Positions 486 through 14,195 of a DNA stretch of 14,195 bases are shown here, piece after piece. The stretch is from a virus. Taxonomy: Duplodnaviria > Heunggongvirae > Uroviricota > Caudoviricetes. The DNA is taken from the IMG/VR virus record IMGVR_UViG_2617270940_000003, one strand, 5' to 3'. Each line of letters starts with the position of its first letter. Positions within the stretch are counted from its first letter, which is position 1. The notes under the pieces were generated by a model. That model worked only from the letters and a program-made list of their open reading frames with translations, searched no databases and was not told the DNA's origin. The position numbers and the translations under genes are program-made.

Positions 486-618
486 GCAAGCACCTTAAAA
501 TCACCATCATACACTAAATCAGTAAGTTGGCAGCATTACCCTATTTCTGTAGTCACTTTTGTGGGGACAGTCCACAAAACTGCCAACTTCCGCTTCTTGC
601 TCTTAGCGGACATTAGCA

Positions 619-2231
619 TAGGCTATTTACCATAACGCCTCATTACGCGCACCGCCCAGACTGACTCAGCGCGTTTCTGGCATATCCCCGGTAAAACAAG
701 TAACAAACCACCCGAAAATGAACACCAGAAACGCGACTTAAGAATCTACCCTATGAATGGATATGCACTCAACCGAATCGATCTTGGTTTCAATCTTTTT
801 TATCGGGATCAGGCTTCTTTTTAGGTAACTTCGGGGGCTTAACTTGCTGATGACTTTGCGTTCGGCGCGTAAGCCAGGGATGGTCAGCTTTAGGTTTAAC
901 ATAGTATTTTGAGCGTAAATCAATACGGGCATTATCCACTCGTTCATGGACACTCTTTTCATCATCCAGTGGTATAGGCTCCGGGCCATCAACATACTTT
1001 TCCCAGCCCAGCGCTTTCCCGTCATACAGAACGTTAATTTCACCGTCAAAGTTCTCGCATACAGTAACAACCGAATGCCTAAGTCGATATCCCCGGCTCT
1101 CACTGCGTACCTGAAACGCACTGCTTTTGTACTGGAAAGTGAGATTTTTAGACAGAACGCGCTTCGCCTGTAGGCTGAAGATATAACCCAGTTCCTCTTC
1201 AGAATGGTGCACATCAAGATGAGCATTATCAGTAGTACGAGGCGACGTAGCGAACCGGTTGTTATAGGCTTCAATAAAGGTCGGCAACCATGCATTTGCT
1301 GTTTCAATATCACTGATATTCTGAAGCCGCATTTCTTTGACCAGCCTGTCCTGTAGTGTCTGATTGGCGCGCTCTACCCGCCCTTTTGCCTGCGGGCTGT
1401 TGGCATGGATTGGCTCGATGCCCAGTGTCTTTATCGCACGAGTGAACTGGGTCAGCTCACCTTCCCGCTCTGGGTTATTTACCCTGAATATACTGTGTCT
1501 ATCAGAGTAGAGAGCGAGCGGTACGCCATGATCATTAAGGTAACCCCGGAGGGTTTCCATGTAAGCCCGGGTTGTTTCAGCAGGCACAAAACGCAACGCC
1601 ATCAACGCACTGGTGGCATCATCAATGAAAACGATCAGTGTACATCTGGGGCCTCGATTTTCAAACCAGTCATGAGGTGAGCCATCAATCTGGATCAGTT
1701 CACCGTAAGATGGTCGTCGCATGCGGCGTTGATATATACGGGCAATTTTACGACGGCGTTCACGCCATAACCCCTCTTCTATCATCCACTTTCTGAGAGT
1801 TTCAACGGATAAAGATAAACCGTGTATCTCGCGCAATTTTTCGCACGCAAACGTAGGTCCAAAATCAGCGTAACGGCCTTTGAGGAGTGAAATTACTGTT
1901 GCTCTGAATTCAGTAGAAAAGGAATTATTAGGACGCTTTCCACGTCGGTGGGAAACCAGACCAGAAGGCCCTTCATTTCTATACCGTTGCACCAGACGTT
2001 TAACCTGCCGAATAGAAATGCCAATGCGTGCCGCAGCTTGTTCCTGAGTAATATGTCGATTAATTGACTCCTGAATAATCTGAAGTCGGTGGAGTTCCTT
2101 ATGACTCATCGTAACAGTCTCTTTGATCATGAAAAATCCCCCAGAGAATTGTCTGGGGACATTTTAGAATGGTTCAAAGGGGACATTACAGCTTGGTGTT
2201 AACAATAGCCTGCTTCTCCGTGCCTTTCGGC
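619..2231 (-). mobile_element. Tentative extent of the IS carrying the 446-aa transposase; ends not resolved
   Basis: Only a weak imperfect inverted match between 619-640 (aggctatttaccataacgcc) and the reverse complement of 2210-2231 (aggctattgttaacaccaagc). Hairpins at 2148-2167 (ccccaga-N6-tctgggg) and 2237-2254 (cggagaagc-N0-gcttctccg) lie in or just beyond the transposase leader. No clear target-site duplication found. Confidence 0.3.
790..2130 (-). CDS. DDE-type transposase with N-terminal HTH and rve (integrase-core) domain, ISNCY (IS1202-group) or IS481-like
   Basis: 446-aa ORF. N-terminal HTH (ITQEQAAARIGISIRQVKRLVQRY). Catalytic-core candidates LIQIDGSPHDW (D), LYSDRHSIF (D), GRVERANQTLQ (E). 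Lys/Pro-rich basic C-terminal tail. Family assignment is from motif layout and length, not a search. Confidence 0.8.
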   Translation of the reverse strand: MIKETVTMSHKELHRLQIIQESINRHITQEQAAARIGISIRQVKRLVQRYRNEGPSGLVSHRRGKRPNNSFSTEFRATVISLLKGRYADFGPTFACEKLREIHGLSLSVETLRKWMIEEGLWRERRRKIARIYQRRMRRPSYGELIQIDGSPHDWFENRGPRCTLIVFIDDATSALMALRFVPAETTRAYMETLRGYLNDHGVPLALYSDRHSIFRVNNPEREGELTQFTRAIKTLGIEPIHANSPQAKGRVERANQTLQDRLVKEMRLQNISDIETANAWLPTFIEAYNNRFATSPRTTDNAHLDVHHSEEELGYIFSLQAKRVLSKNLTFQYKSSAFQVRSESRGYRLRHSVVTVCENFDGEINVLYDGKALGWEKYVDGPEPIPLDDEKSVHERVDNARIDLRSKYYVKPKADHPWLTRRTQSHQQVKPPKLPKKKPDPDKKD

Positions 2232-2464
2232 ACGTAAGAGGCTAACCTACATGTGTCTAGCATGAAATTGGCCTCAGATTAATGTTAAGCGTCTTGCAGG
2301 ACGCGTAATGTTAACTGGGGCTTTTCTCTATCTGCCGTTGGTGTCCATGCCCGAGGCAGATAGCCTCAAGCACCCGCAGTCATTCTACTTAACTAAGATT
2401 TCCCCGCAAACCGTTTTTGTCCAGCACAGTAAATATCCAACTAAACCAATGGAGTTCGCTGTAT

Positions 2465-2644
2465 TTACCGCCAGTATTCAATGCACATGACCGCCATGAA
2501 CACCCCTAAAAAAAGGGCATTTATATATCCAAATATTAATATCAAAACATCAACTTTTTCCATATACCTTGCTGTGAAGATGATGGGCATACATGATGCG
2601 AACAACCAGAACGCAACAAACAAAAACTGCAATGCGTTTTTCAT
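2465..2644 (-). CDS. Small hydrophobic protein, 59 aa, two predicted transmembrane segments; function unknown
   Basis: Internal ATG of the listed 72-aa ORF, preceded on the minus strand by a canonical Shine-Dalgarno (gtAGGAGGaataATG). Product MKNALQFLFVAFWLFASCMPIIFTARYMEKVDVLILIFGYINALFLGVFMAVMCIEYWR. AT-rich, island-like context. Confidence 0.4.
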   Translation of the reverse strand: MKNALQFLFVAFWLFASCMPIIFTARYMEKVDVLILIFGYINALFLGVFMAVMCIEYWR

Positions 2645-2901
2645 TATTCCTCCTACAATCAATGTGCAATTACATTTAAACACACCTCAATTTGGCCGGA
2701 CATATAAATATCTAAACCAGAAAAAATCACTTACATAGCGTTACAAACTCTTTAGTCTAAAGGTTCATCGTAAAACATTCCCCATACTTATCAGTCCGTT
2801 CCGCGCCAGGTAGCTCATTGCCTTATCTGGCAACCTGTAATCAGGTTTCCGCTTTTTCAGTTGGCTGGTCGTTTAACCGACATAGTTAATCCATTAATCT
2901 A

Positions 2902-3532
2902 GTTGCCGGATGTTGGTGGATTTTCGCGTTTTAGTTGTTCATAAAAGTGCACAGCTTTAACCAGTTCTTCTGATGTAACCGGGACTGGTGAGGCAGTGAA
3001 TAAGGCCTGAATTTGATAGTTCGGCCTGTCGTTACAATCCTCTTTTTTCGGTACATATTTCCAGTCACCAGACCACTACTTCCCCTGAAAGTCCGTAACG
3101 CTTTTTTCACGTAGCGATATCGCCATGCCACTGGTTTTGCTTGCCCGCCGTTTCATGCCCTTCCTGATAATTAATCTCGCTCATTCATCGCCCCACTCAT
3201 CACAATATGCTTCGACCGGAGTTTTTCCCGCTTCATAGTCATCACGCTAGGATTCGACATCAGCAGCACTTCCACCGCGTAATTCACCATAGTCCATTAA
3301 TAGTTCATCCCGCTCTTCAAAACTGATGTTATATTTAGCTGAACAAAAATCAGCCACTTTGTTCTTCCTCATCGTCTTTTATTTCGTGGTATGAGTAATT
3401 GCAGTAGTTAAAGAAAATTTCTTATGCTCCGTCATGAATTTCATCAGGTGTTGCGTCATCGTCCACTTCGAATACATCCTCAAAATCTCCACCAGCTATT
3501 TCCGTTTCAATAATAATTTTGAACTTTCGCAT
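2902..3532 (-). pseudogene. Run of decayed small phage (nin-region-like) ORFs on the minus strand: fragments in three frames, one in-frame TAG and at least one frameshift
   Basis: Hand translation gives a 36-aa ORF (3425-3532, MRKFKIIIETEIAGGDFEDVFEVDDDATPDEIHDGA); a 41-aa ORF (3251-3372) whose frame continues after a TAG at 3250-3248 as RDDYEAGKTPVEAYCDEWGDE; an ATGA stop/start overlap into MSEINYQEGHETAGKQNQWHGDIAT; and a start-less protein-like frame ...WSGDWKYVPKKEDCNDRPNYQIQALFTASPVPVTSEELVKAVHFYEQLKRENPPTSGN ending at 2902. Confidence 0.4.
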
Positions 3533-3794
3533 TTCACTACCGCCCTTTCGGGCGGCCTCCTGATGTTCTGAGGGTGCAGAAATCCATCCGGTTAAGGATT
3601 AAGTTTTATTTACAGAACTGAATTTAATTATTCAGATATACGTATCTGTAACCTTACGAATCTACTCACTGGATGCCTCTTTCATAAAAATAATCCAGTG
3701 GGTTTTATCGTTTTTTCCCTGTTCGTTGACAGATAACAGGCTTTCTATCTGTCAGTGCCAGAATCTGGCTTACCGGTATTTGCGTTTCATTCCA

Positions 3795-4151
3795 TTAAAA
3801 AATCAGAACGCCGTGCGGCCTCAACACCCGAAAAGCTTCTTTAAATCTCTGTCGCAAATCATCACGCCAGGCATCTTTATTCAGCCGTCCATATTTCTTT
3901 CCCATCCAGGCGTTATCACCAACACGCTCAAGATGCGGAGGGTCTAATACAACCATCGAAAAAGATGCGTCTGCAAATGATAATGCACGAAAATCTGCGA
4001 TAATGTCAGGGCTGATAATCAAGCGTCTCCCATTGCGTAATGTGTATCCTTCTTTTCTGATATCGCTGAATATCGCCCGTTTGTCAGACTTATCGAACCA
4101 GAACATGCGGCTGCCACAGCACATATCAAGAATGGTTGCCGGTGCACTCAC
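3795..4151 (-). CDS. Putative DNA (amino) methyltransferase, probably C-terminally truncated (catalytic motifs I and IV only, 118 aa)
   Basis: ILDMCCGS (AdoMet-binding motif-I-like) near the N-terminus and VVLDPPH (DPPY/H-type motif IV) about 60 residues later. No room for a target-recognition domain. Start overlaps the upstream ORF stop (ATGA at 4148-4151). Downstream sequence is decayed. Confidence 0.5.
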   Translation of the reverse strand: MSAPATILDMCCGSRMFWFDKSDKRAIFSDIRKEGYTLRNGRRLIISPDIIADFRALSFADASFSMVVLDPPHLERVGDNAWMGKKYGRLNKDAWRDDLRQRFKEAFRVLRPHGVLIF

Positions 4152-4570
4152 TGCGCCACGTCCTGAAAATTACCCTGATAGAAAGCCAGTATGCGCTGCA
4201 TAACTTCGCTCTTCCGGCACTCGCGACAGATTATGTTTAGGCGACTGTCGTAGCGACGTATTTCTCCGTCAGGTGATGACCAGATAAGGTCCGGATCAAC
4301 CACAGCAGGTTTCTTCACCTTTGCCCTCGAGAGTTTTTTGCGGGCGTTTTGCCAGTCCTTACGCGCCTGTTCAGAGGGGAATAACCCGTAGCCGGAGTTG
4401 TATACATCGCCACTGGCTACCAGCTCTCTGGCAAGAACGCTCATCAGATATCTAGTCGCACCTGTTTTAGCTTCCAGTTGCCGTAACGTCTCACGGCCGC
4501 TCTGGCGCACGAGTTCCACCACCTGCCATTTAATTTTTTCCCGCTCTTCTTGTGTAAAAACTTTTGCCAC
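4148..4570 (-). CDS. Hypothetical phage protein, 140 aa, basic
   Basis: Complete ORF in an operon-like array, translationally coupled to the downstream methyltransferase fragment; no recognisable motif. Confidence 0.55.
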   Translation of the reverse strand: MAKVFTQEEREKIKWQVVELVRQSGRETLRQLEAKTGATRYLMSVLARELVASGDVYNSGYGLFPSEQARKDWQNARKKLSRAKVKKPAVVDPDLIWSSPDGEIRRYDSRLNIICRECRKSEVMQRILAFYQGNFQDVAQ

Positions 4571-4610
4571 AAGTCCCCCTTAAAATTACCTCATGACCTG
4601 AAATCAACAC

Positions 4611-4994
4611 TTATCCTCTGAAACCAGACGGAATTTCTGTATCCGGTTCAGAAATATGATTAACACAACGCTGTACAGGTGAACGTCCCAGGCGGATGAC
4701 CAGTTCGTCCCATTTTTCGCGGAGCTTTGACGGGCTCATGATGTTTTTTACCCAGAATGGATCTCGCTGAACCCGACCAAACATTTCGCAAATTTGTCTG
4801 TGGCTTCTGCCATCCAGCATCCGCATTGTGCGCACGTCATTGGCCCAGGCAGTCCAGTTAGGCTCTTTTGGTCGCATGATCTCGCCATCATCACTGGCTG
4901 CCTGTTCGTAGAGACCCACGATCCGCCCCCAGATCCACTGCGCACACGCCAAATCCTCCCTGCTACCCCACTGGCGTTTTTTCGCACTAAACAC
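4611..4994 (-). CDS. Probable C-terminal domain of the replication initiator, as a separate ORF because of an in-frame TAG; apparent GTG start
   Basis: Same minus-strand frame as 5025-5630. The only stop between them is the TAG at 5027-5025, followed by ten sense codons (DSLTRNSDAV) and then this ORF. Confidence 0.5.
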   Translation of the reverse strand: MFSAKKRQWGSREDLACAQWIWGRIVGLYEQAASDDGEIMRPKEPNWTAWANDVRTMRMLDGRSHRQICEMFGRVQRDPFWVKNIMSPSKLREKWDELVIRLGRSPVQRCVNHISEPDTEIPSGFRG

Positions 4995-5024
4995 AACCGC
5001 GTCGGAGTTCCGGGTTAAAGAATC

Positions 5025-5630
5025 CTATTCAGTCGTCTGCGGGTCCGGTTGCGAAGCTTCCGGACGAAAAGTGTTTTTATTCTCTGTAGTAATCTCTGTT
5101 GTATTCTCTGTAAGATCATCAGGCCATTTTGACCCGATGACATTGGGTCGTTTTGAACCAATGGAGCGTTTCATTTTGACCTCTTCCATCGTGTCATTTT
5201 GACCTGATGGAGCGGCGCATTTTGAACCGATGGATTCGCTCAATTTGCCACCATCTAAAAGCTCGCTCCCATAGTTGATCGTGTAGAAATTGGTCATATC
5301 GCGCTTTGATTTATTGAGCTTTTCACAACGCAAAAGCCCCAGCGTTTTCAGACTTGCAAACGCGCGCTTTAACGTTGACTCTGACCAGAATGGGAACTGT
5401 TCCAGCCATTGTTCCGTTGTGTTATAAATCCAGCGAACACCATCACATTCCATGCCGGAGTTGGTATCTCTCAACCAGTAGTGCAGTTGTTGCAAAACAA
5501 TGGCTTCGTTTAAGCCAATTTTCATTGCCAGCTGCGTGTTTATAACCAGTGGGCGTTCAGCAAAAAGAAGGCTCATAATTCCATCCAGCTTTTTGTTGGT
5601 ATTGCTGTCGATACGCAAGCTTGAAAGCAA
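5025..5630 (-). CDS. Replication initiator (lambda O-like replisome organiser), N-terminal DNA-binding domain plus linker; ends at an amber codon
   Basis: 201-aa ORF with ...LNEAIVLQQLHYWLRD... helix-turn-helix-like segment and a repetitive linker (SIGSK x3) whose coding DNA is the iteron array. Sits downstream of the Cro-like and cII-position genes. Alternative start Met19 at 5576. Confidence 0.6.
   Translation of the reverse strand: MLSSLRIDSNTNKKLDGIMSLLFAERPLVINTQLAMKIGLNEAIVLQQLHYWLRDTNSGMECDGVRWIYNTTEQWLEQFPFWSESTLKRAFASLKTLGLLRCEKLNKSKRDMTNFYTINYGSELLDGGKLSESIGSKCAAPSGQNDTMEEVKMKRSIGSKRPNVIGSKWPDDLTENTTEITTENKNTFRPEASQPDPQTTE
5124..5233. repeat. Five direct iterons (putative phage replication origin) inside the initiator gene
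   Basis: C(A/G)TTTTGA(A/C)C..GATGG-type repeats starting at 5125, 5149, 5172, 5195, 5218 (23-24 bp periodicity). Flanked at 5081-5111 by three TCTCTGT repeats at 12-bp spacing and an AT-rich tract at 5067-5080. Confidence 0.6.
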
Positions 5631-6078
5631 TTGCTTTTTCTATAAGTTCGTCAGTTTCACGATCCACTACGGCAGGATCAGCAAAAAGCAGTCCGGACTC
5701 CACCACATCGCCATATTCTTTGTTTAACCCGGCGATCATGCACGTGATGCTTTTTCCGTCAGTAATTTCACGATACAACCTGAAATCACTAATCCGGATA
5801 GCCTCCATAATCGCAGGCACTAGCGCCGTGAACTTTTCACGCTTATCCCTGGTGTCGATAGCCTTCCAGCGTTCGAATATCTTCACTCGATTAACACCAA
5901 GCGCTCGCTGATCAACCGCGCCACCTTCATCTGTGACACGCTGAACATCGATGTTCGGGCGCTCTTTCAAAGCCCAGAATGCTTCAGTGATTAATATCGT
6001 CGCCTGCTCCTGTGTCATTCCTGGTCGACATATCCAGGCATCCAGAGCCTCACGAGCCTGTTCAGGAGTGATTTTCAT
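5557..6078 (-). CDS. Hypothetical early protein at the cII position (second gene of the Cro-side operon), 173 aa
   Basis: Complete ORF immediately downstream of the Cro-like gene, overlapping it by 17 nt. No motif recognised. Function inferred only from position. Confidence 0.5.
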   Translation of the reverse strand: MKITPEQAREALDAWICRPGMTQEQATILITEAFWALKERPNIDVQRVTDEGGAVDQRALGVNRVKIFERWKAIDTRDKREKFTALVPAIMEAIRISDFRLYREITDGKSITCMIAGLNKEYGDVVESGLLFADPAVVDRETDELIEKAIAFKLAYRQQYQQKAGWNYEPSFC

Positions 6079-6289
6079 TGTTCAACCGCCCCGCCCGCTT
6101 CGTCTTACGATATTCATCATAAACTTTGGGATCATACTGAAGCTCCCCGCCAGATGCCTCCTGTAGACGCATCGCGCGACCTTCAGGAACCAGTATCCCC
6201 CAAGCAGCAACACTTGCCAGCCTCACTCCTGCGGCATTGGCAAGCTTTGTTTTGCTGCCAAAAAAAGTAATTGCGTCAACTTTAAGCAT
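6062..6289 (-). CDS. dicC: Cro-like HTH repressor, DicC-like (75 aa from Met at 6289; the longer 86-aa frame starts at 6322)
   Basis: HTH segment FFGSKTKLANAAGVRLASVAAW. Divergent from the DicA-like gene across a 48-81 bp intergenic region that contains a palindromic operator. Confidence 0.6.
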   Translation of the reverse strand: MLKVDAITFFGSKTKLANAAGVRLASVAAWGILVPEGRAMRLQEASGGELQYDPKVYDEYRKTKRAGRLNNENHS

Positions 6290-6303
6290 CAAAGCCCCCC
6301 TCT

Positions 6304-6321
6304 TGTTAGACTTTTCTAACA
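6304..6321. promoter_or_regulatory. Palindromic operator candidate TGTTAGA-cttt-TCTAACA in the dicA/dicC divergent promoter region
   Basis: Perfect 7-bp inverted arms with a 4-bp spacer. Same half-site as the palindrome downstream of dicA. Confidence 0.5.
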
Positions 6322-6370
6322 TTATTGTGCGCGGGATACCTAAGTCAAGAAAAATTAGAATTACCTAACT

Positions 6371-6778
6371 ATGGATACAAGAACCCTGGGCCAGCGAGTT
6401 CTGGCGCGACGAAAAGAATTACGCTTAACACAACGAGAAGCCGCGCGCCTCGCTGGAGTTGCTCACGTCACAATTTCACAATGGGAAAGAGACGAAACCC
6501 AGCCAGTCGGAAAACGATTGTTTGCTTTAGCGGATGCTCTGAAGTGCTCACCTACATGGCTAATGTTTGGTGACGAAGACAAGGCACCAGTGCCTGCACA
6601 AGAACTTCATGTGGAAACAGAGCTAACTCCCAACCACAAAGAATTGATCGAATTATTCGATGCTCTTCCATCTTCCGAGCAGGAAGCCTTGCTGTCTGAA
6701 ATGCGCGCAAGAGTAGAAAACTTCAACAAACTCTTCGAAGAAATGCTTAAAGCGCGTAAAAATAAATCAATAAAATAA
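6371..6778 (+). CDS. dicA: XRE-family HTH repressor, DicA-like (repressor of the division-inhibition operon)
   Basis: 135-aa ORF. HTH LTQREAARLAGVAHVTISQWE. Segments ...SPTWLMFGDEDK..., ...ELIELFDALPSSEQ..., ...EMRARVENFNKLFEEMLKAR... match my recollection of E. coli DicA. No S24 peptidase domain. Confidence 0.85.
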   Translation: MDTRTLGQRVLARRKELRLTQREAARLAGVAHVTISQWERDETQPVGKRLFALADALKCSPTWLMFGDEDKAPVPAQELHVETELTPNHKELIELFDALPSSEQEALLSEMRARVENFNKLFEEMLKARKNKSIK

Positions 6779-6813
6779 CATTCTTTTCAAGTGATTAGTT
6801 GCGCCCACCCTTT

Positions 6814-6833
6814 TTGTTAGATCAATCTAACAA
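6814..6833. promoter_or_regulatory. Palindromic operator candidate TTGTTAGA-tcaa-TCTAACAA upstream of ydfA, with a degenerate third copy at about 6851-6867
   Basis: Perfect 8-bp inverted arms with a 4-bp spacer between the dicA stop and ydfA. Partial copy tgttagg-tta-ttctaaa at 6851-6867. Confidence 0.5.
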
Positions 6834-6946
6834 AAAACACTTGCCTCTCATGTTAGGTTATTCTAAATTATTTTCCATCAAGACACCGCACGGTGTTCTC
6901 AGCAAACAGTTCCGCTACCCCGGCGTTAAGGGGAAATGAGGTCAGC

Positions 6947-7102
6947 ATGGATACTATCGATCTTGGCAACAGCGAATCTCTGGTATGTGGCGTGTTCCCC
7001 AACCAGGACGGTACGTTCACCGCGATGACGTATACCAAAAGCAAAACGTTTAAAACCGAAAATGGTGCCCGTCGCTGGCTGGAAAGAAACCCAGGTGAGT
7101 GA
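6947..7102 (+). CDS. ydfA: Small Qin-type prophage protein YdfA-like (51 aa)
   Basis: MDTIDLGNSESLVCGVFPNQDGTFTAMTYTKSKTFKTENGARRWLERNPGE with a GAGG Shine-Dalgarno 7 nt upstream. First gene of the operon leading to dicF and dicB. Confidence 0.75.
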   Translation: MDTIDLGNSESLVCGVFPNQDGTFTAMTYTKSKTFKTENGARRWLERNPGE

Positions 7103-7103
7103 T

Positions 7104-7232
7104 ATGGATTTCGACACAATCATGGAAAAGGCTTACGAAGAATACTTCGAAGGTCTTGCCGACGGCGAAGAAGCTCTCAGCTTCAACGAATTTAAACAGG
7201 CGCTTTCCAGTTCGGCAAAATCTAACGGCTGA
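7104..7232 (+). CDS. ydfB: Small Qin-type prophage protein YdfB-like (42 aa); below the 60-aa ORF-track cutoff
   Basis: ATG 1 nt after the ydfA stop. MDFDTIMEKAYEEYFEGLADGEEALSFNEFKQALSSSAKSNG, stop TGA at 7230-7232. Confidence 0.7.
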   Translation: MDFDTIMEKAYEEYFEGLADGEEALSFNEFKQALSSSAKSNG

Positions 7233-7261
7233 TAAGCGAAACAGCACCGCGAGGAATCAGT

Positions 7262-7480
7262 ATGCAGAAACGAGAACCCGTCATCATCGCGCCAGACTAT
7301 ACCGATGATGAACTTTATGAGTGGATGCGCCAGAAAATTAATGCAGCGCAGGATTTGAAATGGGCCAATGAAACCAGGGCTAAGCAGGCTGAAAATCTGT
7401 CCGCTCTGGAGCAGGATATCACCAATCTGGAAAAAGCAGCGGCATTAAGCATTGCCAGAATGATTACATACCCGCGTTAG
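7262..7480 (+). CDS. ydfC: Small Qin-type prophage protein YdfC-like (72 aa), coiled-coil-like
   Basis: Complete ORF with a GAGGA Shine-Dalgarno; position and length match ydfC of the dicB operon. Confidence 0.7.
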   Translation: MQKREPVIIAPDYTDDELYEWMRQKINAAQDLKWANETRAKQAENLSALEQDITNLEKAAALSIARMITYPR

Positions 7481-7820
7481 TAGCTAATCAACAAAGCTAA
7501 GGTTAGTAATTAAGGAGTTCTCCACGGGTGAGGTGGAGTGCGTGCGCCGGACACGGGTGAGCATCCGGCACTGACAGTTTACTGAAAGGATATTTCCCTG
7601 AAAAGTCAGACCATAACGCGAAAGCGCACGGCGAGGTAGCTGGTTCATAGATAGCCTGTCGTTAAATTTTCGTCGACCGTGCGCTTCCGGTTGTGGCAAC
7701 CCGCGAAATGGCGCGGCGGTAAGTATGGCGGGGGTATTCCTTCCCCGTTGAGGACACCGGGTTGTCAGGTTGACCATACGCTTAAGTGACAACCCCGCTG
7801 CAACGCCCTCTGTTATCAAT

Positions 7821-7873
7821 TTTCTGGTGACGTTTGGCGGTATCAGTTTTACTCCGTGACTGCTCTGCCGCCC
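7821..7873 (+). ncRNA. dicF: DicF small antisense RNA (about 53 nt), followed by its intrinsic terminator T-run at 7874-7878
   Basis: Sequence tttctggtgacgtttggcggtatcagttttactccgtgactgctctgccgccc followed by ttttt matches the DicF sRNA as I recall it. GC stem (ggcgg at 7836-7840 pairing with ccgcc at 7868-7872) immediately before the T-run. Confidence 0.8.
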
Positions 7874-8047
7874 TTTTTAAAGTGAATTTTGTGATGTGGT
7901 GAATGCGGCTGAGCGCACGCGGAACAGTTAAAACCAAAAACAGTGTTATGGGTGGATTCTCTGTATCCGGCGTTAATTGTTAACTGGTTAACGTCACCTG
8001 GAGGCACCAGGCACTGCATCACAAAATTCATTGTTGAGGACGCGATA

Positions 8048-8236
8048 ATGAAAACGTTATTACCAAACGTTAATACGTCTGAAGGTTGTTTTGAAATTGG
8101 TGTCACTATCAGTAACCCAGTATTTACTGAAGATGCCATTAACAAGAGAAAACAAGAACGGGAGCTATTAAATAAAATATGCATTGTTTCAATGCTGGCT
8201 CGTTTACGTCTGATGCCAAAAGGATGTGCACAATGA
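8048..8236 (+). CDS. dicB: Cell-division inhibitor DicB (acts via MinC), 62 aa
   Basis: Internal ATG of the listed 97-aa ORF, with a GAGGA Shine-Dalgarno. MKTLLPNVNTSEGCFEIGVTISNPVFTEDAINKRKQERELLNKICIVSMLARLRLMPKGCAQ matches recalled DicB. Confidence 0.85.
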   Translation: MKTLLPNVNTSEGCFEIGVTISNPVFTEDAINKRKQERELLNKICIVSMLARLRLMPKGCAQ

Positions 8237-8424
8237 ATTCAGCATTTGTGCTTGTTCTGACAGTTTTTCTTGTTTCCGGAGAGCCAGTTGATATTGCAGT
8301 CAGTGTGCACAGGACAATGCAGGAGTGTATGACTGCAGCAACCGAACAGAAAATTCCCGGTAACTGTTACCCGGTCGATAAAGTTATTCACCAGGATAAT
8401 ATCGAAATCCCGGCAGGTCTTTAA
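8233..8424 (+). CDS. ydfD: YdfD-like small membrane lysis protein, 63 aa
   Basis: ATG overlapping the dicB stop (ATGA). MNSAFVLVLTVFLVSGEPVDIAVSVHRTMQECMTAATEQKIPGNCYPVDKVIHQDNIEIPAGL with a hydrophobic N-terminal segment. Confidence 0.8.
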   Translation: MNSAFVLVLTVFLVSGEPVDIAVSVHRTMQECMTAATEQKIPGNCYPVDKVIHQDNIEIPAGL

Positions 8425-8517
8425 AACAGTTCCGTAATAAATATCCGGTTTCATTCTTATATGCCAGCAATGGCAGGGATTTGTTCATCCTTAAATCTGT
8501 CATGAGGTTAAAACAAA

Positions 8518-10989
8518 ATGAGTAAAGTCTTTATTTGCGCCGCTATTCCTGACGAACTGGCAACAAGGGAAGAAGGCGCTGTGGCTGTAGCCACAGCCAT
8601 TGAAGCTGGCGACGAACGCCGTGCTCGAGCAAAATTTCACTGGCAGTTCCTGGAACATTATCCGGCTGCTCAGGACTGCGCTTATAAATTTATTGTCTGC
8701 GAGGATAAACCTGGCATACCCCGCCCTGCCCTCGATTCATGGGATGCTGAATATATGCAGGAAAACCGCTGGGATGAGGAGTCTGCTTCTTTTGTCCCGG
8801 TTGAGACTGAATCCGATCCGATGAACGTCACTTTTGACAAGCTGGCCCCTGAAGTACAGAACGCTGTCATGGTTAAGTTCGACACATGTGAAAACATCAC
8901 CGTTGATATGGTTATTAGCGCACAGGAATTGTTGCAGGAAGACATGGCAACATTCGACGGACATATCGTTGAAGCGTTGATGAAAATGCCAGAAGTTAAC
9001 GCCATGTATCCGGAGCTTAAGTTGCACGCCATTGGGTGGGTTAAGCATAAATGTATTCCTGGTGCTAAATGGCCCGAAATTCAGGCAGAGATGCGCATCT
9101 GGAAAAAACGTCGCGAAGGTGAACGCAAGGAAACCGGAAAATACACGTCTGTTGTTGATCTCGCCCGCGCCAGAACCAATCAACAGTACACTGAAAATTC
9201 AACAGGAAAAATCAGCCCGGTCATTGCTGCCATTCATCGCGAATACAAGCAGACATGGAAAACACTGGATGACGAACTGGCCTACGCTCTCTGGCCTGGT
9301 GATGTGGATGCCGGAAACATTGACGGCAGCATCCATCGCTGGGCAAAAAAAGAAGTTATCGACAACGACCGCGAAGACTGGAAGCGTATCTCGGCATCAA
9401 TGCGCAAACAGCCTGATGCCCTTCGCTACGACCGCCAGACTATTTTTGGCCTTGTCCGTGAGCGTCCGATCGACATTCACAAAGATCCCATAGCACTGAA
9501 CAAATATATCTGCGAATACCTGACGACAAAGGGCGTGTTTGAGAATGAAGAAACAGACCTGGGCACTGTTGATGTTCTCCAGTCATCAGAAACACAAACT
9601 GATGCAGTGGAAACTGAGGTATCTGATATCCCAAAAAATGAAACCGCGCCGGAAGCTGAACCATCTGTAGAGCGTGAGGGGCCGTTCTATTTCCTCTTCG
9701 CAGATAAGGACGGAGAAAAATACGGTCGCGCAAACAAACTTTCTGGTCTGGATAAGGCACTGGCTGCTGGCGCCACTGAAATCACAAAAGAAGAATATTT
9801 TGCCCGAAAAAATGGCACATACACGGGCTTACCGCAAAATGTAGATACCGCTGAAGATTCAGAACAACCAGAGCCGATAAAAGTTACCGCTGACGAAGTA
9901 AACAAAATTATGCAGGCAGCCAATATCAGCCAGCCTGACGCCGATAAGTTGCTTGCTGCATCACGTGGTGAATTTGTTGAAGGGATTAGTGACCCGAATG
10001 ATCCGAAATGGGTTAAGGGGATCCAGACCCGCGATTCTGTGAACCAGAACCAGCATGAATCGGAACGGAACTACCAAAAAGCGGAACAAAACAGCACAAA
10101 TGCGTTACAAAACGAGCCAGAAACGAAACAGCCTGAACCAGTGGCGCAACTGGAAGTGGAAAAAGTCTGCACCGCCTGCGGTCAGACCGGCGGCGGCAAC
10201 TGCCCTGATTGTGGCGCGGTGATGGGCGACGCAACATACCAGGAAACATTCGATGAAGAGTATCAGGTTGAAGTTCAGGAAGATGATCTGGAGGAAATGG
10301 AAGGCGCTGAACATCCACACAAGGAGAACACTGGCGGCAATCAGCATCACAATAGCGATAATGAAACTGGCGAGACGGCAGATCACTCAATTAAGGTGAA
10401 CGGTCATCACGAAATCACATCCACCAGCAGGACGTGTGACCATCTAATGATCGACCTTGAAACCATGGGAAAAAATCCTGATGCCCCGATCATCTCAATA
10501 GGTGCAATATTTTTCGATCCGCAAACCGGAGATATGGGACCGGAATTTAGTAAGACTATCGATCTGGAAACTGCTGGCGGAGTCATTGATCGGGACACCA
10601 TTAAATGGTGGCTTAAGCAATCACGCGAAGCGCAATCTGCCATTATGACCGATGAAATCCCGTTAGATGATGCACTGTTACAATTGCGGGAATTTATCGA
10701 CGAAAACTCCGGTGAATTTTTTGTTCAGGTTTGGGGAAATGGAGCCAACTTCGACAACACGATTTTGCGCCGTTCATACGAACGGCAGGGGATCCCCTGC
10801 CCGTGGCGTTACTACAACGATCGCGATGTACGCACAATCGTTGAGCTGGGGAAAGCCATAGACTTCGATGCCAGAACGGCTATTCCATTCGAAGGTGAGC
10901 GCCATAATGCACTTGATGACGCCCGTTACCAGGCAAAATACGTTTCAGTTATCTGGCAAAAACTGATCCCGAGTCAGGCTGATTCTTAA
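8518..10989 (+). CDS. Large multidomain prophage protein: N-terminal region of unknown function, CxxC-x7-CxxC zinc ribbon, acidic linker, C-terminal DEDDh-type 3'-5' exonuclease domain (occupies the ydfE position)
   Basis: Uninterrupted 823-codon frame. Zinc ribbon CTACGQTGGGNCPDCG encoded at 10168-10212. Exonuclease motifs: Exo I MIDLETMG (D646, E648), Exo II GNGANFDNTIL (D746), Exo III HNALDDARY (H796, D800). Last gene of the plus-strand operon before xis/int. Confidence 0.85.
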   Translation: MSKVFICAAIPDELATREEGAVAVATAIEAGDERRARAKFHWQFLEHYPAAQDCAYKFIVCEDKPGIPRPALDSWDAEYMQENRWDEESASFVPVETESDPMNVTFDKLAPEVQNAVMVKFDTCENITVDMVISAQELLQEDMATFDGHIVEALMKMPEVNAMYPELKLHAIGWVKHKCIPGAKWPEIQAEMRIWKKRREGERKETGKYTSVVDLARARTNQQYTENSTGKISPVIAAIHREYKQTWKTLDDELAYALWPGDVDAGNIDGSIHRWAKKEVIDNDREDWKRISASMRKQPDALRYDRQTIFGLVRERPIDIHKDPIALNKYICEYLTTKGVFENEETDLGTVDVLQSSETQTDAVETEVSDIPKNETAPEAEPSVEREGPFYFLFADKDGEKYGRANKLSGLDKALAAGATEITKEEYFARKNGTYTGLPQNVDTAEDSEQPEPIKVTADEVNKIMQAANISQPDADKLLAASRGEFVEGISDPNDPKWVKGIQTRDSVNQNQHESERNYQKAEQNSTNALQNEPETKQPEPVAQLEVEKVCTACGQTGGGNCPDCGAVMGDATYQETFDEEYQVEVQEDDLEEMEGAEHPHKENTGGNQHHNSDNETGETADHSIKVNGHHEITSTSRTCDHLMIDLETMGKNPDAPIISIGAIFFDPQTGDMGPEFSKTIDLETAGGVIDRDTIKWWLKQSREAQSAIMTDEIPLDDALLQLREFIDENSGEFFVQVWGNGANFDNTILRRSYERQGIPCPWRYYNDRDVRTIVELGKAIDFDARTAIPFEGERHNALDDARYQAKYVSVIWQKLIPSQADS

Positions 10990-11000
10990 TGTTCAACTGT

Positions 11001-11032
11001 CGCCGGTTGTGACTGGTATTCTGCAACCGGCG
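11001..11032 (+). other. Stable stem-loop (9-bp stem cgccggttg/caaccggcg, 14-nt loop) between the 823-aa gene and the excisionase gene; no T-run
   Basis: Perfect inverted repeat read directly. Not followed by a U-tract, so not a canonical intrinsic terminator. Confidence 0.4.
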
Positions 11033-11061
11033 CTCGTCTAATGTAAGAGATAAAGAAATCG

Positions 11062-11313
11062 ATGAGCGAAGTAATCATGATTGTCTCTCCCGGCAAATGG
11101 GTATCCGAAGAGCAGTTAATTGCGCTGAAAGGAATAAAAAAAGGTACGTTAAAAAAGGCCCGGGAAAAATCGTTTATGGAAGGAAGGGAATATAAGCATG
11201 TCGCTCATGACGGTATGCCATGGGATAACAGCCCATGCTTTTACAACCTGGAAGAAATTGATCGCTGGATTGAGCGCCAGGCATCAGCGAGACCAAGACG
11301 TCATCTTACTTGA
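11062..11313 (+). CDS. Putative excisionase / recombination directionality factor (83 aa, basic)
   Basis: Small basic ORF ending 20 nt before int on the same strand, the lambda-like xis-int arrangement. No motif verified. Confidence 0.55.
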   Translation: MSEVIMIVSPGKWVSEEQLIALKGIKKGTLKKAREKSFMEGREYKHVAHDGMPWDNSPCFYNLEEIDRWIERQASARPRRHLT

Positions 11314-11332
11314 CTAAAAGCCACACTAACTA

Positions 11333-12628
11333 ATGAGAGAAGTTGAAATGAAATATCCGACAGGCGTGGAAAACCATGGAGGGAAATTACGTATCTGGTT
11401 TGTTTATAAAGGCGTAAGAGTCAGGGAAAATCTGGGGGTTCCTGACACAGCAAAAAACAGGCGCGTTGCAGGTGAACTACGCGCCTCTGTTTGTTACGCA
11501 ATAAAAACTGGTGTTTTCGACTATGCAAAACAGTTTCCCTCCTCACGCAATCTGGAAAAATTTGGTGAGGCCCGACAAGATTTAACCATAAAAGAACTGG
11601 CTGAAAAATTTCTGGCACTGAAAGAAACTGAAGTCGCAAAAACATCACTCAACACATACCGTGCCGTCATCAAAAATATCCTGAGCATAATCGGTGAAAA
11701 AAATCTTGCCTCATCGATTAATAAAGAAAAATTACTGGAGGTTCGTAAAGAGCTACTGACTGGATACCAGATCCCCAAAAGTAACTATATTGTTACACAA
11801 CCAGGGAGATCGGCTGTAACTGTAAATAATTACATGACAAATCTTAACGCCGTGTTCCAGTTTGGTGTTGATAACGGTTACTTGGCAGATAACCCGTTTA
11901 AGGGGATCTCGCCATTAAAGGAATCAAGAACCATTCCGGATCCTCTTTCGCGGGAGGAATTCATCCGTCTTATCGATGCGTGCAGAAATCAGCAAGCCAA
12001 AAATTTATGGTGTGTTTCTGTTTATACTGGCGTTCGCCCTGGTGAGCTGTGTGCACTTGGATGGGAGGACATAGATCTGAAAAATGGAACAATGATGATC
12101 AGGAGAAATTTAGCAAAAGACCGTTTCACGGTACCAAAAACACAGGCGGGAACCAATCGGGTCATTCATCTTATTAAGCCAGCAATCGACGCTCTCCGGA
12201 GTCAGATGACATTAACGAGACTGAGCAAAGAGCATATCATTGATGTTCACCTCAGAGAGTATGGCAGAACAGAAAAACAAAAATGCACCTTTGTTTTTCA
12301 ACCTGAAGTGTCAGCGAGAGTAAAAAATTATGGTGACCATTTTACCGTTGACTCAATAAGGCAGATGTGGGACGCAGCGATAAAACGTGCCGGACTCCGC
12401 CATCGAAAATCATATCAGTCGAGACATACTTATGCCTGCTGGTCGCTGACAGCTGGTGCTAACCCGGCATTTATAGCAAACCAGATGGGCCATGCAGATG
12501 CGCAAATGGTATTTCAGGTATACGGAAAATGGATGTCTGAAAACAATAATGCACAGGTAGCTTTGTTAAATACACAGTTAAGCGAGTTTGCCCCAACCAT
12601 GCCCCATAACGAAGCAATGAAAAATTAA
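11333..12628 (+). CDS. Phage tyrosine integrase (lambdoid Int family); likely true start at the ATG at 11348 (MKYPTGVE...)
   Basis: N-terminal arm-binding-like segment (GKLRIWFVYKGVRVRENLGV...GVFDYAKQFPSSR) resembling e14/Rac-type integrases. C-terminal catalytic region with R (VYTGVRPGEL), H-x-x-R (RHTYACW) and the Tyr in ...MVFQVYGKW. Confidence 0.9.
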   Translation: MREVEMKYPTGVENHGGKLRIWFVYKGVRVRENLGVPDTAKNRRVAGELRASVCYAIKTGVFDYAKQFPSSRNLEKFGEARQDLTIKELAEKFLALKETEVAKTSLNTYRAVIKNILSIIGEKNLASSINKEKLLEVRKELLTGYQIPKSNYIVTQPGRSAVTVNNYMTNLNAVFQFGVDNGYLADNPFKGISPLKESRTIPDPLSREEFIRLIDACRNQQAKNLWCVSVYTGVRPGELCALGWEDIDLKNGTMMIRRNLAKDRFTVPKTQAGTNRVIHLIKPAIDALRSQMTLTRLSKEHIIDVHLREYGRTEKQKCTFVFQPEVSARVKNYGDHFTVDSIRQMWDAAIKRAGLRHRKSYQSRHTYACWSLTAGANPAFIANQMGHADAQMVFQVYGKWMSENNNAQVALLNTQLSEFAPTMPHNEAMKN

Positions 12629-12650
12629 TTTAATATTTATCAAATAGTTA

Positions 12651-12758
12651 ACACGTATGACTCTTGAAATCCATAAATTCAAGCGCAGTGCCCAGCCATC
12701 CCGATACTGCTGCTTTCACCAAATCCTTAGTGCTTCTTTCGTGTTTTTCTATTGTCAT
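12651..12758 (-). pseudogene. 5' fragment (36 codons) of an MFS (metabolite:H+ symporter-type) transporter gene truncated by prophage integration; ydfJ-like
   Basis: Minus-strand ORF MTIEKHERSTKDLVKAAVSGWLGTALEFMDF-KSHTC* with the conserved N-terminal MFS signature (G-x-x-L/M-E-F/W-x-D-F), then divergence and a stop within a few codons, right beside int. Confidence 0.5.
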
Positions 12759-12901
12759 AATGGTTATCTCTAAAAAAGAGGTAAGATGCGTACTACTTAC
12801 TCGCCGTTATTGGTATTATTCAGAAAAAGTGAGTAAGACTTTGCAGCAATGTTTTTGATCCTGTTCAAATAAACTAATGGCATCAGCAACTGGATTTGCC
12901 C

Positions 12902-13807
12902 CTATATTTCCAGACACCTGTTATCACTTAACCCATTACTGGCCTGCTGCCGCAGATATTCCCGTGGCGAGCGATAACCCAGTGCACTATGCGGATGCCA
13001 TTCGTTATAATGCTCGAACGCCTCTGCAAGGTTCTTTGCTGCCGTTAACCCGTCTGGTTTAGGCATGATACTGATGTAGTCACGCTTTATCGTTTTCACG
13101 AAGCTCTCTGCTATGCCGTTACTCTCCGGACTCCGCACCGCCGTGTTCTTCGGTTCAAGCCCCAACATCCGGGCAAACTGCCGTGTTTCATTAGCCCGGT
13201 AGCATGAACCATTATCCGTCAGCCACTCTACTGGAGACGCCGGAAGCTCGTTGCCGAAGCGGCGTTCCACCGCTCCCAGCATTACGTCCTGTACTGTTTC
13301 ACTGTCGAAGCCGCCCGTAGTGACTGCCCAGTGCAGTGCCTCACGGTCACAGCAGTCCAGCGCGAACGTGACTCGCAGTTTTTCTCCGTTATCACAGCGG
13401 AACTCGAACCCGTCAGAGCACCATCGTTGATTGCTTTCTTTCACGGCCACTTTGCCAGTATGTGCCCGTTTCGATGGCGGTACAGCGGGTTTTCGCTCAA
13501 GCAACAGCGCATTCTGGCGCATGATCCGGTAAACACGTTTGGCATTGATCGCAGGCATACCATCAAGTTCGGCCTGTCTGCGAAGCAGCGCCCATACCCG
13601 ACGATAACCATACGTGGGCAGCTCTCCGATAACATGGTGTATACGGAGAAGCACATCCGTATCATCTGAGTGACGGCTGCGGCGACCATCTTTCCAGTCA
13701 TCGGTTCGTCTGAGAATTACGTGCAACTGCGCACGCGACACCCGGAGACAACGGCTGACTAAGCTTACTCCCCATCCCCGGGCAATAAGGGCGCGTGCGC
13801 TATCCAC
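12902..13807 (-). CDS. insD: IS2 transposase OrfB (InsD), DDE integrase core
   Basis: 301-aa ORF ending ...[22 protein letters not shown]...; overlaps insC in the -1 frame. Confidence 0.9.
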
Positions 13808-14130
13808 TTTTTTGCACGCCCGTATTCAACGGCTTCTTTAAGGAGTTCATTTTCCATCGTTTTTTTGCCGAGCAGGCGCTGGAGTTCTTTAATCTGCTTC
13901 ATGGCAGCAGCAAGTTCAGAGGCAGGAACGACCTGCTCTCCTGCGGCCACAGCAGTAAGACTTCCCTCCTGGTATTGCTTGCGCCAGAGAAATAACTGGC
14001 TGGCTGCCACACCGTGTTGCCGGGCAACAAGGGAGACCGTCATTCCCGGTTCAAAACTCTGCTGAACAATAGCGATCTTTTCCTGTGTAGTACGCCGTCT
14101 GCGTTTCTCCGGTCCTAAGACATCAATCAT
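13765..14130 (-). CDS. insC: IS2 OrfA (InsC), HTH DNA-binding protein
   Basis: [56 protein letters not shown]... from the ATG at 14130-14128. The ORF-track frame extends upstream to 14175 but the recognised start is the internal Met. Confidence 0.85.
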
Positions 14131-14195
14131 CTGCTCTCCAATGACTAGTCTAAAAACTAGTATTAAGACTATCACTTATTTAAGTGATATTGGTT

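Follow-up and report, generated by a model that had tools for sequence, protein, structure and literature searches.

A Qin/mEp460-type prophage junction within the E. coli transporter gene ydfJ, adjoined by an IS2 copy in rspB

Organization of the window

The window, i.e. the whole stretch of 14,195 nucleotides analysed here, begins inside an IS1 copy, continues with the exonuclease, xis and int genes of a prophage, passes into remnants of the host genes ydfJ and rspB, and ends inside an IS2 element. Since it starts inside one insertion sequence and ends inside another, it is probably a complete contig of a draft short-read assembly, broken at collapsed repeats. The main features are listed below, with coordinates and strand.

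1-546, left window edge: partial IS1, 99.5-99.8% identical to IS1 family transposase copies over 1-546/555
8518-10989, plus strand: exonuclease gene, intact, 823 aa; Rv2179c-like 3'-5' exonuclease domain (2.3e-67)
11062-11313, plus strand: xis, excisionase, 83 aa; Pfam DUF1233, putative excisionase (1.6e-31)
11348-12628, plus strand: int, tyrosine integrase, 426 aa; the mechanically defined ORF starts at 11333
12629-12662: phage-derived att arm, from the int stop to the att sequence; matches mEp460 attP and not the empty ydfJ
12663-12681: att sequence CTTGAAATCCATAAATTCA, 19 bp, from a five-way alignment; the phage match ends at 12681 and the host match starts at 12663-12666
12648-12758, minus strand: ydfJ remnant, made up of 31 host codons (12666-12758), 5 phage codons and a stop
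12759-12815: native rspB-ydfJ spacer, 57 bp, intact and identical to the empty-site strain
12816-12890, minus strand: rspB 3' remnant, codons 316-339 (VADAISLFEQDQKHCCKVLLTFSE) and stop; the rspB annotation of strain GB089 maps from 12816
12886-12890: GCAAC, the 5-bp target duplication expected from a simple insertion, the second copy lying beyond the window
12891-14195, minus strand: IS2 (IS3 family), 1305 of 1331 nt, with the right inverted repeat at 12891
12902-13807, minus strand: IS2 orfB, 301 aa, DDE integrase core; Pfam rve (8.5e-20), rve_3 and HTH_21
13765-14130, minus strand: IS2 orfA, 121 aa, HTH; Pfam HTH_Tnp_1 (1.8e-19)

Prophage-type matches begin at position 541. The int product combines an arm-binding N-terminal domain (Pfam Arm-DNA-bind_2, 5.5e-24) with a catalytic domain (Phage_integrase, 3.9e-18), as a tyrosine integrase does, and its gene adjoins the att site; strains 100% identical to the window in this region have it annotated as a gene of 1281 nt. 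The protein is identical to the integrase of phage mEp460 at 424 of 426 positions, and Xis is identical to its mEp460 counterpart over all 83 residues. A preliminary description of this DNA had taken both int and IS2 to be intact, which is correct for int; for IS2, the far end lies outside the window.

Unlike K-12, the window has int and xis genes that are intact and resemble those of a phage, and on the basis of their sequences this prophage end may remain recombination-competent. Despite the two intact genes the prophage as a whole may be defective, because its early region contains the IS1 copy, a partial ISEsa1-type transposase and pseudogenes, as judged from a relative of 100% identity.

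Other elements were observed within the prophage. A full-length DicF antisense RNA, expected in a Qin-type prophage, is located at 7822-7873 on the plus strand (RF00039, 76.7 bits). On the minus strand, a match to the sok antitoxin (Rfam RF01794) covers 2204-2375 and scores 104 bits, versus a gathering score of 59; no ORF of 30 aa or more that resembles Hok is apparent in its vicinity, the relatives carry no annotation there, and the match may correspond to a degraded hok/sok locus. A 446-aa ORF at 790-2130, also on the minus strand, is annotated in relatives as a partial ISEsa1/ISNCY family transposase lacking its C-terminus, and appears to be another mobile-element remnant of the prophage early region. 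As for IS1, three strains carry a copy near flxA/ydfW, detected as a two-piece match over about 1.47 kb with 94.6-94.7% identity; this arrangement was discarded as an equivalent of the left edge, as its junction differs from that of the window.

The prophage-host junction and its att sequence

The int gene stops at 12628, and past it the minus strand contains a 36-codon ORF (12648-12758) whose product is MTIEKHERSTKDLVKAAVSGWLGTALEFMDFKSHTC. The preliminary description had placed here, within the 5' coding region of an MFS transporter gene, the junction between prophage and host. Alignment with the uninterrupted gene of the prophage-free strain MLI106K2 bears this out and identifies the gene as ydfJ. 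The similarity to a transporter N-terminus, on which the proposal depended, is complete: residues 1-31 of the ORF coincide with the N-terminus of YdfJ at 31 of 31 positions, exactly 31 host codons being kept, and past residue 31 the ORF reads KSHTC and stops, versus QLYSL in YdfJ.

YdfJ of MLI106K2 is an MHS-family MFS transporter of 455 aa (Pfam MFS_1, 2.7e-37). A full-length protein of this kind, with 12 helices, is not encoded in the window, which holds residues 1-31 of the 455, with five foreign codons and a stop appended to them. The ORF at 12648-12758 is a gene remnant and no transporter gene, and it should be annotated as the remnant of ydfJ.

From 12666 onwards the window and the empty-site DNA are 100% identical for 225 nt (E = 3e-113), values by which a chance match may be dismissed; the entire host flank, 12666-12890, is identical to the empty ydfJ-rspB locus of MLI106K2. 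In this strain ydfI, ydfJ, rspB and rspA follow each other on one strand, and in the window the 5' end of ydfJ is likewise followed by rspB, as expected for the host flank of a prophage at this site.

The att site was defined by a five-way alignment including the window, mEp460 attP, the empty attB, the far junction of the GB089 prophage and K-12. A strict ungapped core, GAAATCCATAA, is common to attP, attB and both junctions and corresponds to window positions 12666-12676, inside the interval 12650-12680 near which it had been predicted. When the imperfect flanks are included, the length becomes 18 bp for attP and 19 bp for attB, the latter corresponding to window positions 12663-12681; Nakamura et al. 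2021 (PMC8112680, S7 Fig legend) likewise give 18 or 19 bp as the length of att in PPydfJ prophages. The attP sequence reads ...gactCTTGAAATCCATAA-TTCAcagg... and the attB sequence ...taaCTGGAAATCCATAAATTCAagcg..., the latter occurring within intact ydfJ as CTGGAAATCCATAAATTCA. The core includes, on the ydfJ coding strand, the ATG of Met29, as read directly from the sequence, and this is why older annotations began the truncated ydfJ at Met29.

The DNA that links int to the att site is of phage origin. This arm, 12629-12662, contains one A/G difference from mEp460 attP, at 12651, and one T/C difference from K-12, at 12657; the distance from the int stop is 34 nt to the att sequence of 19 bp and 37 nt to the strict core. 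The free phages mEp460, PhiR42_1, HannyBb and Tritos are 99.0-99.5% identical to the window from within int up to 12681, where they diverge. A related int 3' end, with about 91% identity, is also found in 15 records of Stx2a-converting phages: the match reaches window position 12678, inside att, in all 15 of them, and 14 of the 15 terminate at the start of the match.

In the window the order is phage arm, core, host, corresponding to a phage left arm joined to a host right arm. The far junction of the complete, 47-kb GB089 prophage has the order host, core, phage arm, i.e. a host left arm and a phage right arm. The two pairs of arms are reciprocal and share the common core, which is the pattern of attP x attB recombination, and no evidence was found that contradicts the prophage junction itself.

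By these sequences a mEp460/Qin-type phage integrated, through Int-type site-specific recombination between attP and attB, into ydfJ codons 28-31, with strand exchange taking place within the shared core at 12666-12676. This event left beside int a stub of 31 ydfJ codons, prolonged by five phage-derived codons. The remainder of ydfJ, devoid of its promoter and of the first 28-31 codons, would have been displaced to the opposite prophage end, where it is found in the relative GB089. If a single prophage is present, the far junction in the same genome would be expected to read ...AACTGGAAATCCATAATTCACAGG....

The IS2 boundary within rspB

Host-type matches end at 12890 and IS2 starts exactly at 12891 (TGGATTTGCCCC...). 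Its two genes lie in overlapping frames, and the annotation of a copy with 1 nt difference includes a programmed frameshift between them. Compared with an annotated IS2-type copy of strain PSJ-23, the element shows a single nucleotide difference in 1305; its final 26 nt, among them the left inverted repeat, fall beyond the window and read GTCTGGAGATTCAGGGGGCCAGTCTA in the PSJ-23 copy. The element is oriented like rspB and ydfJ.

The host DNA next to IS2 is coding. RspB ends in ...HVADAISLFEQDQKHCCKVLLTFSE, and the minus strand of the window encodes ...VADAISLFEQDQKHCCKVLLTFSE followed by a stop over 12816-12890, with 24 identical residues; codon 315 and the upstream part of rspB correspond to ATGCTGGAAATCAAACG. 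IS2 breaks the rspB reading frame after codon 315, with 24 codons (from 316 on) left up to the stop.

The preliminary description had located the start of IS2 at 12891, about 130 bp outwards, in what would have been the promoter region of the transporter gene. The position was accurate, with a boundary at 12890/12891 and 132 bp between the ydfJ start codon (12758) and IS2, and this distance is what makes a promoter-region insertion conceivable. The assignment itself had to be abandoned: the segment 12816-12890 codes for the 3' end of rspB (24 codons and the stop), the spacer that separates the two genes is just 57 bp long and untouched, and a consensus scan of 12500-13000 detected no promoter-like (sigma-70-like) or terminator-like site. 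In addition, any effect on ydfJ would be moot, the gene being already reduced to 31 codons. An insertion into the ydfJ promoter region is on these grounds very improbable. Because the scan of 12500-13000 was empty, it is more likely that ydfJ is read through, or co-transcribed, from rspAB. The segment 12816-12890 should be annotated as an rspB remnant rather than as promoter DNA.

The rspB/IS2 junction is best accounted for by a simple insertion, in which IS2, later and independently of the phage, would have transposed into rspB near its 3' end, at the boundary of codons 315 and 316. The pentamer GCAAC at 12886-12890 would then be the target duplication, by analogy with the IS2 copy of PSJ-23, flanked by the 5-bp direct repeat GCTAT, and the far IS2 junction would read ...CAGTCTA-GCAAC-ATGCTGGAAATC.... 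The prophage presumably preceded the IS2 insertion.

Alternatively, the junction could derive from an IS2-mediated adjacent deletion or inversion, or from recombination between IS2 copies, the 5' part of rspB being located elsewhere. Rearrangements of this sort would fit a window that ends inside IS2, and the closest complete genomes carry IS2 at 12 or more places; moreover an internal rspB-rspA deletion is found in the closest relative, CFSAN064036, and in K-12 the prophage IS2 appears to have been followed by a deletion reaching int. Simple insertion is, on the other hand, the default outcome of transposition, and at its visible end IS2 terminates cleanly in the right inverted repeat. A rearranged junction is accordingly considered unlikely.

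An assembly artefact, i.e. a chimeric contig joined at a repeat, is less probable still, to the point of being hardly credible. A contig that starts in IS1 and ends in IS2 is typical of short-read assemblies broken at repeats, but assemblers break contigs at repeat boundaries and seldom create such boundaries, and the transition from rspB to IS2 coincides to the base with the canonical terminus of IS2, with 1305 nt of the element behind it.

Taken jointly, a Qin/mEp460-type lambdoid prophage junction inside ydfJ and a later, independent insertion of IS2 into rspB are regarded with high confidence as the best explanation of the locus. Since the prophage splits ydfJ and IS2 sits in rspB, this strain carries two broken genes side by side in the rspA-rspB-ydfJ-ydfI cluster.

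The right flank of the PSJ-23 element, TAATGGAATGAGCTAT (sequence L006, 1501-1516), matches the rspB flank of the window, TAATGGCATCAGCAAC (12875-12890), at 12 of 16 positions. A junction shared by the two was considered and rejected: the PSJ-23 IS2 locus, near yhcG, is unrelated to the rspB locus, and the extension of the IS2 match by about 16 nt is nothing else than this flank resemblance. It could be due to chance, among thousands of IS2 copies, or could hint at a target-site preference.

Related prophages, prevalence and significance

The closest known arrangement is that of the Qin prophage in K-12, where intQ-ydfJ' lies beside rspB. Integration site and junction are alike (99.7% identity over 12600-12890), and dicB, ydfD, the exonuclease gene, int and rspB are common neighbors. 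The preliminary description had presented the K-12 locus as containing an IS2 remnant and a defective int, and this is indeed its structure: a truncated exonuclease gene is followed by the IS2 remnant and by a 5'-truncated intQ, and xis is gone (L003, 399-3029). In the window, by contrast, exonuclease, xis and int are full length, and IS2 occupies rspB, beyond the prophage end, its orientation relative to int being the opposite one.

A complete IS2 splits the exonuclease gene in SCU-172 (L008, 11955-15747), and related strains likewise carry it inside this prophage gene, in contrast to the rspB location found here. It is plausible that the SCU-172 state is the precursor from which the K-12 arrangement would have been generated by deletion. 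Among the top-ranked matches IS2 had at first appeared to lie next to int; this reading was discarded, the IS2 there being a different insertion, inside the exonuclease gene.

Free phages or complete prophages are represented by mEp460, PhiR42_1, HannyBb, Tritos and the STEC PPydfJ prophages (PMC8112680). In mEp460 attP lies directly downstream of int and contains the same core as the window; unlike the mEp460-type phages, the window prophage carries IS1, the partial ISEsa1-type transposase and pseudogenes. The closest complete genome, CFSAN064036, is 100% identical to the window over 541-12890.

The distribution of the junction was evaluated by comparing window positions 12600-12890 by megablast with 5,426 complete E. 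coli genomes. A match was found in 4,897 of them, and in 2,695 (50%) it covered the whole query, with an integrase and rspB as neighbors; K-12 MG1655 derivatives belong to this group, at 99.7% identity. Of the matches listed with less than full coverage, nearly all start at query positions 64-71 (window 12663-12670) and fall on an intact gene annotated as 'ydfJ: MHS family MFS transporter YdfJ', with rspB next to it. In the literature, Qin is described as integrated site-specifically at the 5' end of ydfJ, with loss of the promoter and of 28 N-terminal codons, and as present in 48% of strains (PMC6379469, Ramisetty and Sudhakari). Junction, site and att sequence are already published, and are found in half of the sequenced E. 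coli.

The IS2 insertion is distributed differently. No place with at least 80% coverage of window 12640-13140, which includes the rspB::IS2 junction, was found in the 5,426 complete E. coli genomes; the exact rspB/IS2 37-mer has no match in the collections of species-representative genomes or metagenome contigs, and the 33-aa ORF that reads through from rspB' into IS2 has no record in the assembly index. By these results the insertion is confined to the source strain or a narrow group of its relatives. It is the sole strain-specific feature of the locus, a new allele devoid of special mechanistic interest.

As a hot spot for the integration of lambdoid and Stx2a prophages ydfJ is already documented, and the window adds only a restatement of the att core at base resolution. 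Other lesions are seen in the neighboring operon: in CFSAN064036 (L009, 15276-16473) an internal deletion fuses partial rspB to partial rspA, without any insertion sequence, and represents independent damage to the same operon; in SCU-172 an rspA-type gene is shortened. Together with the IS2 copy in rspB described here, these cases hint that inactivation of ydfJ by the prophage relaxes selection on the rspA-rspB-ydfJ-ydfI sugar-acid cluster, which would then decay independently in different lysogens. This reading is a tentative one, more doubtful than not, and the effect is unlikely to be strong; if true, E. coli strains whose ydfJ is occupied by a prophage would be expected to have lost the 'starvation-sensing' genes rspAB.
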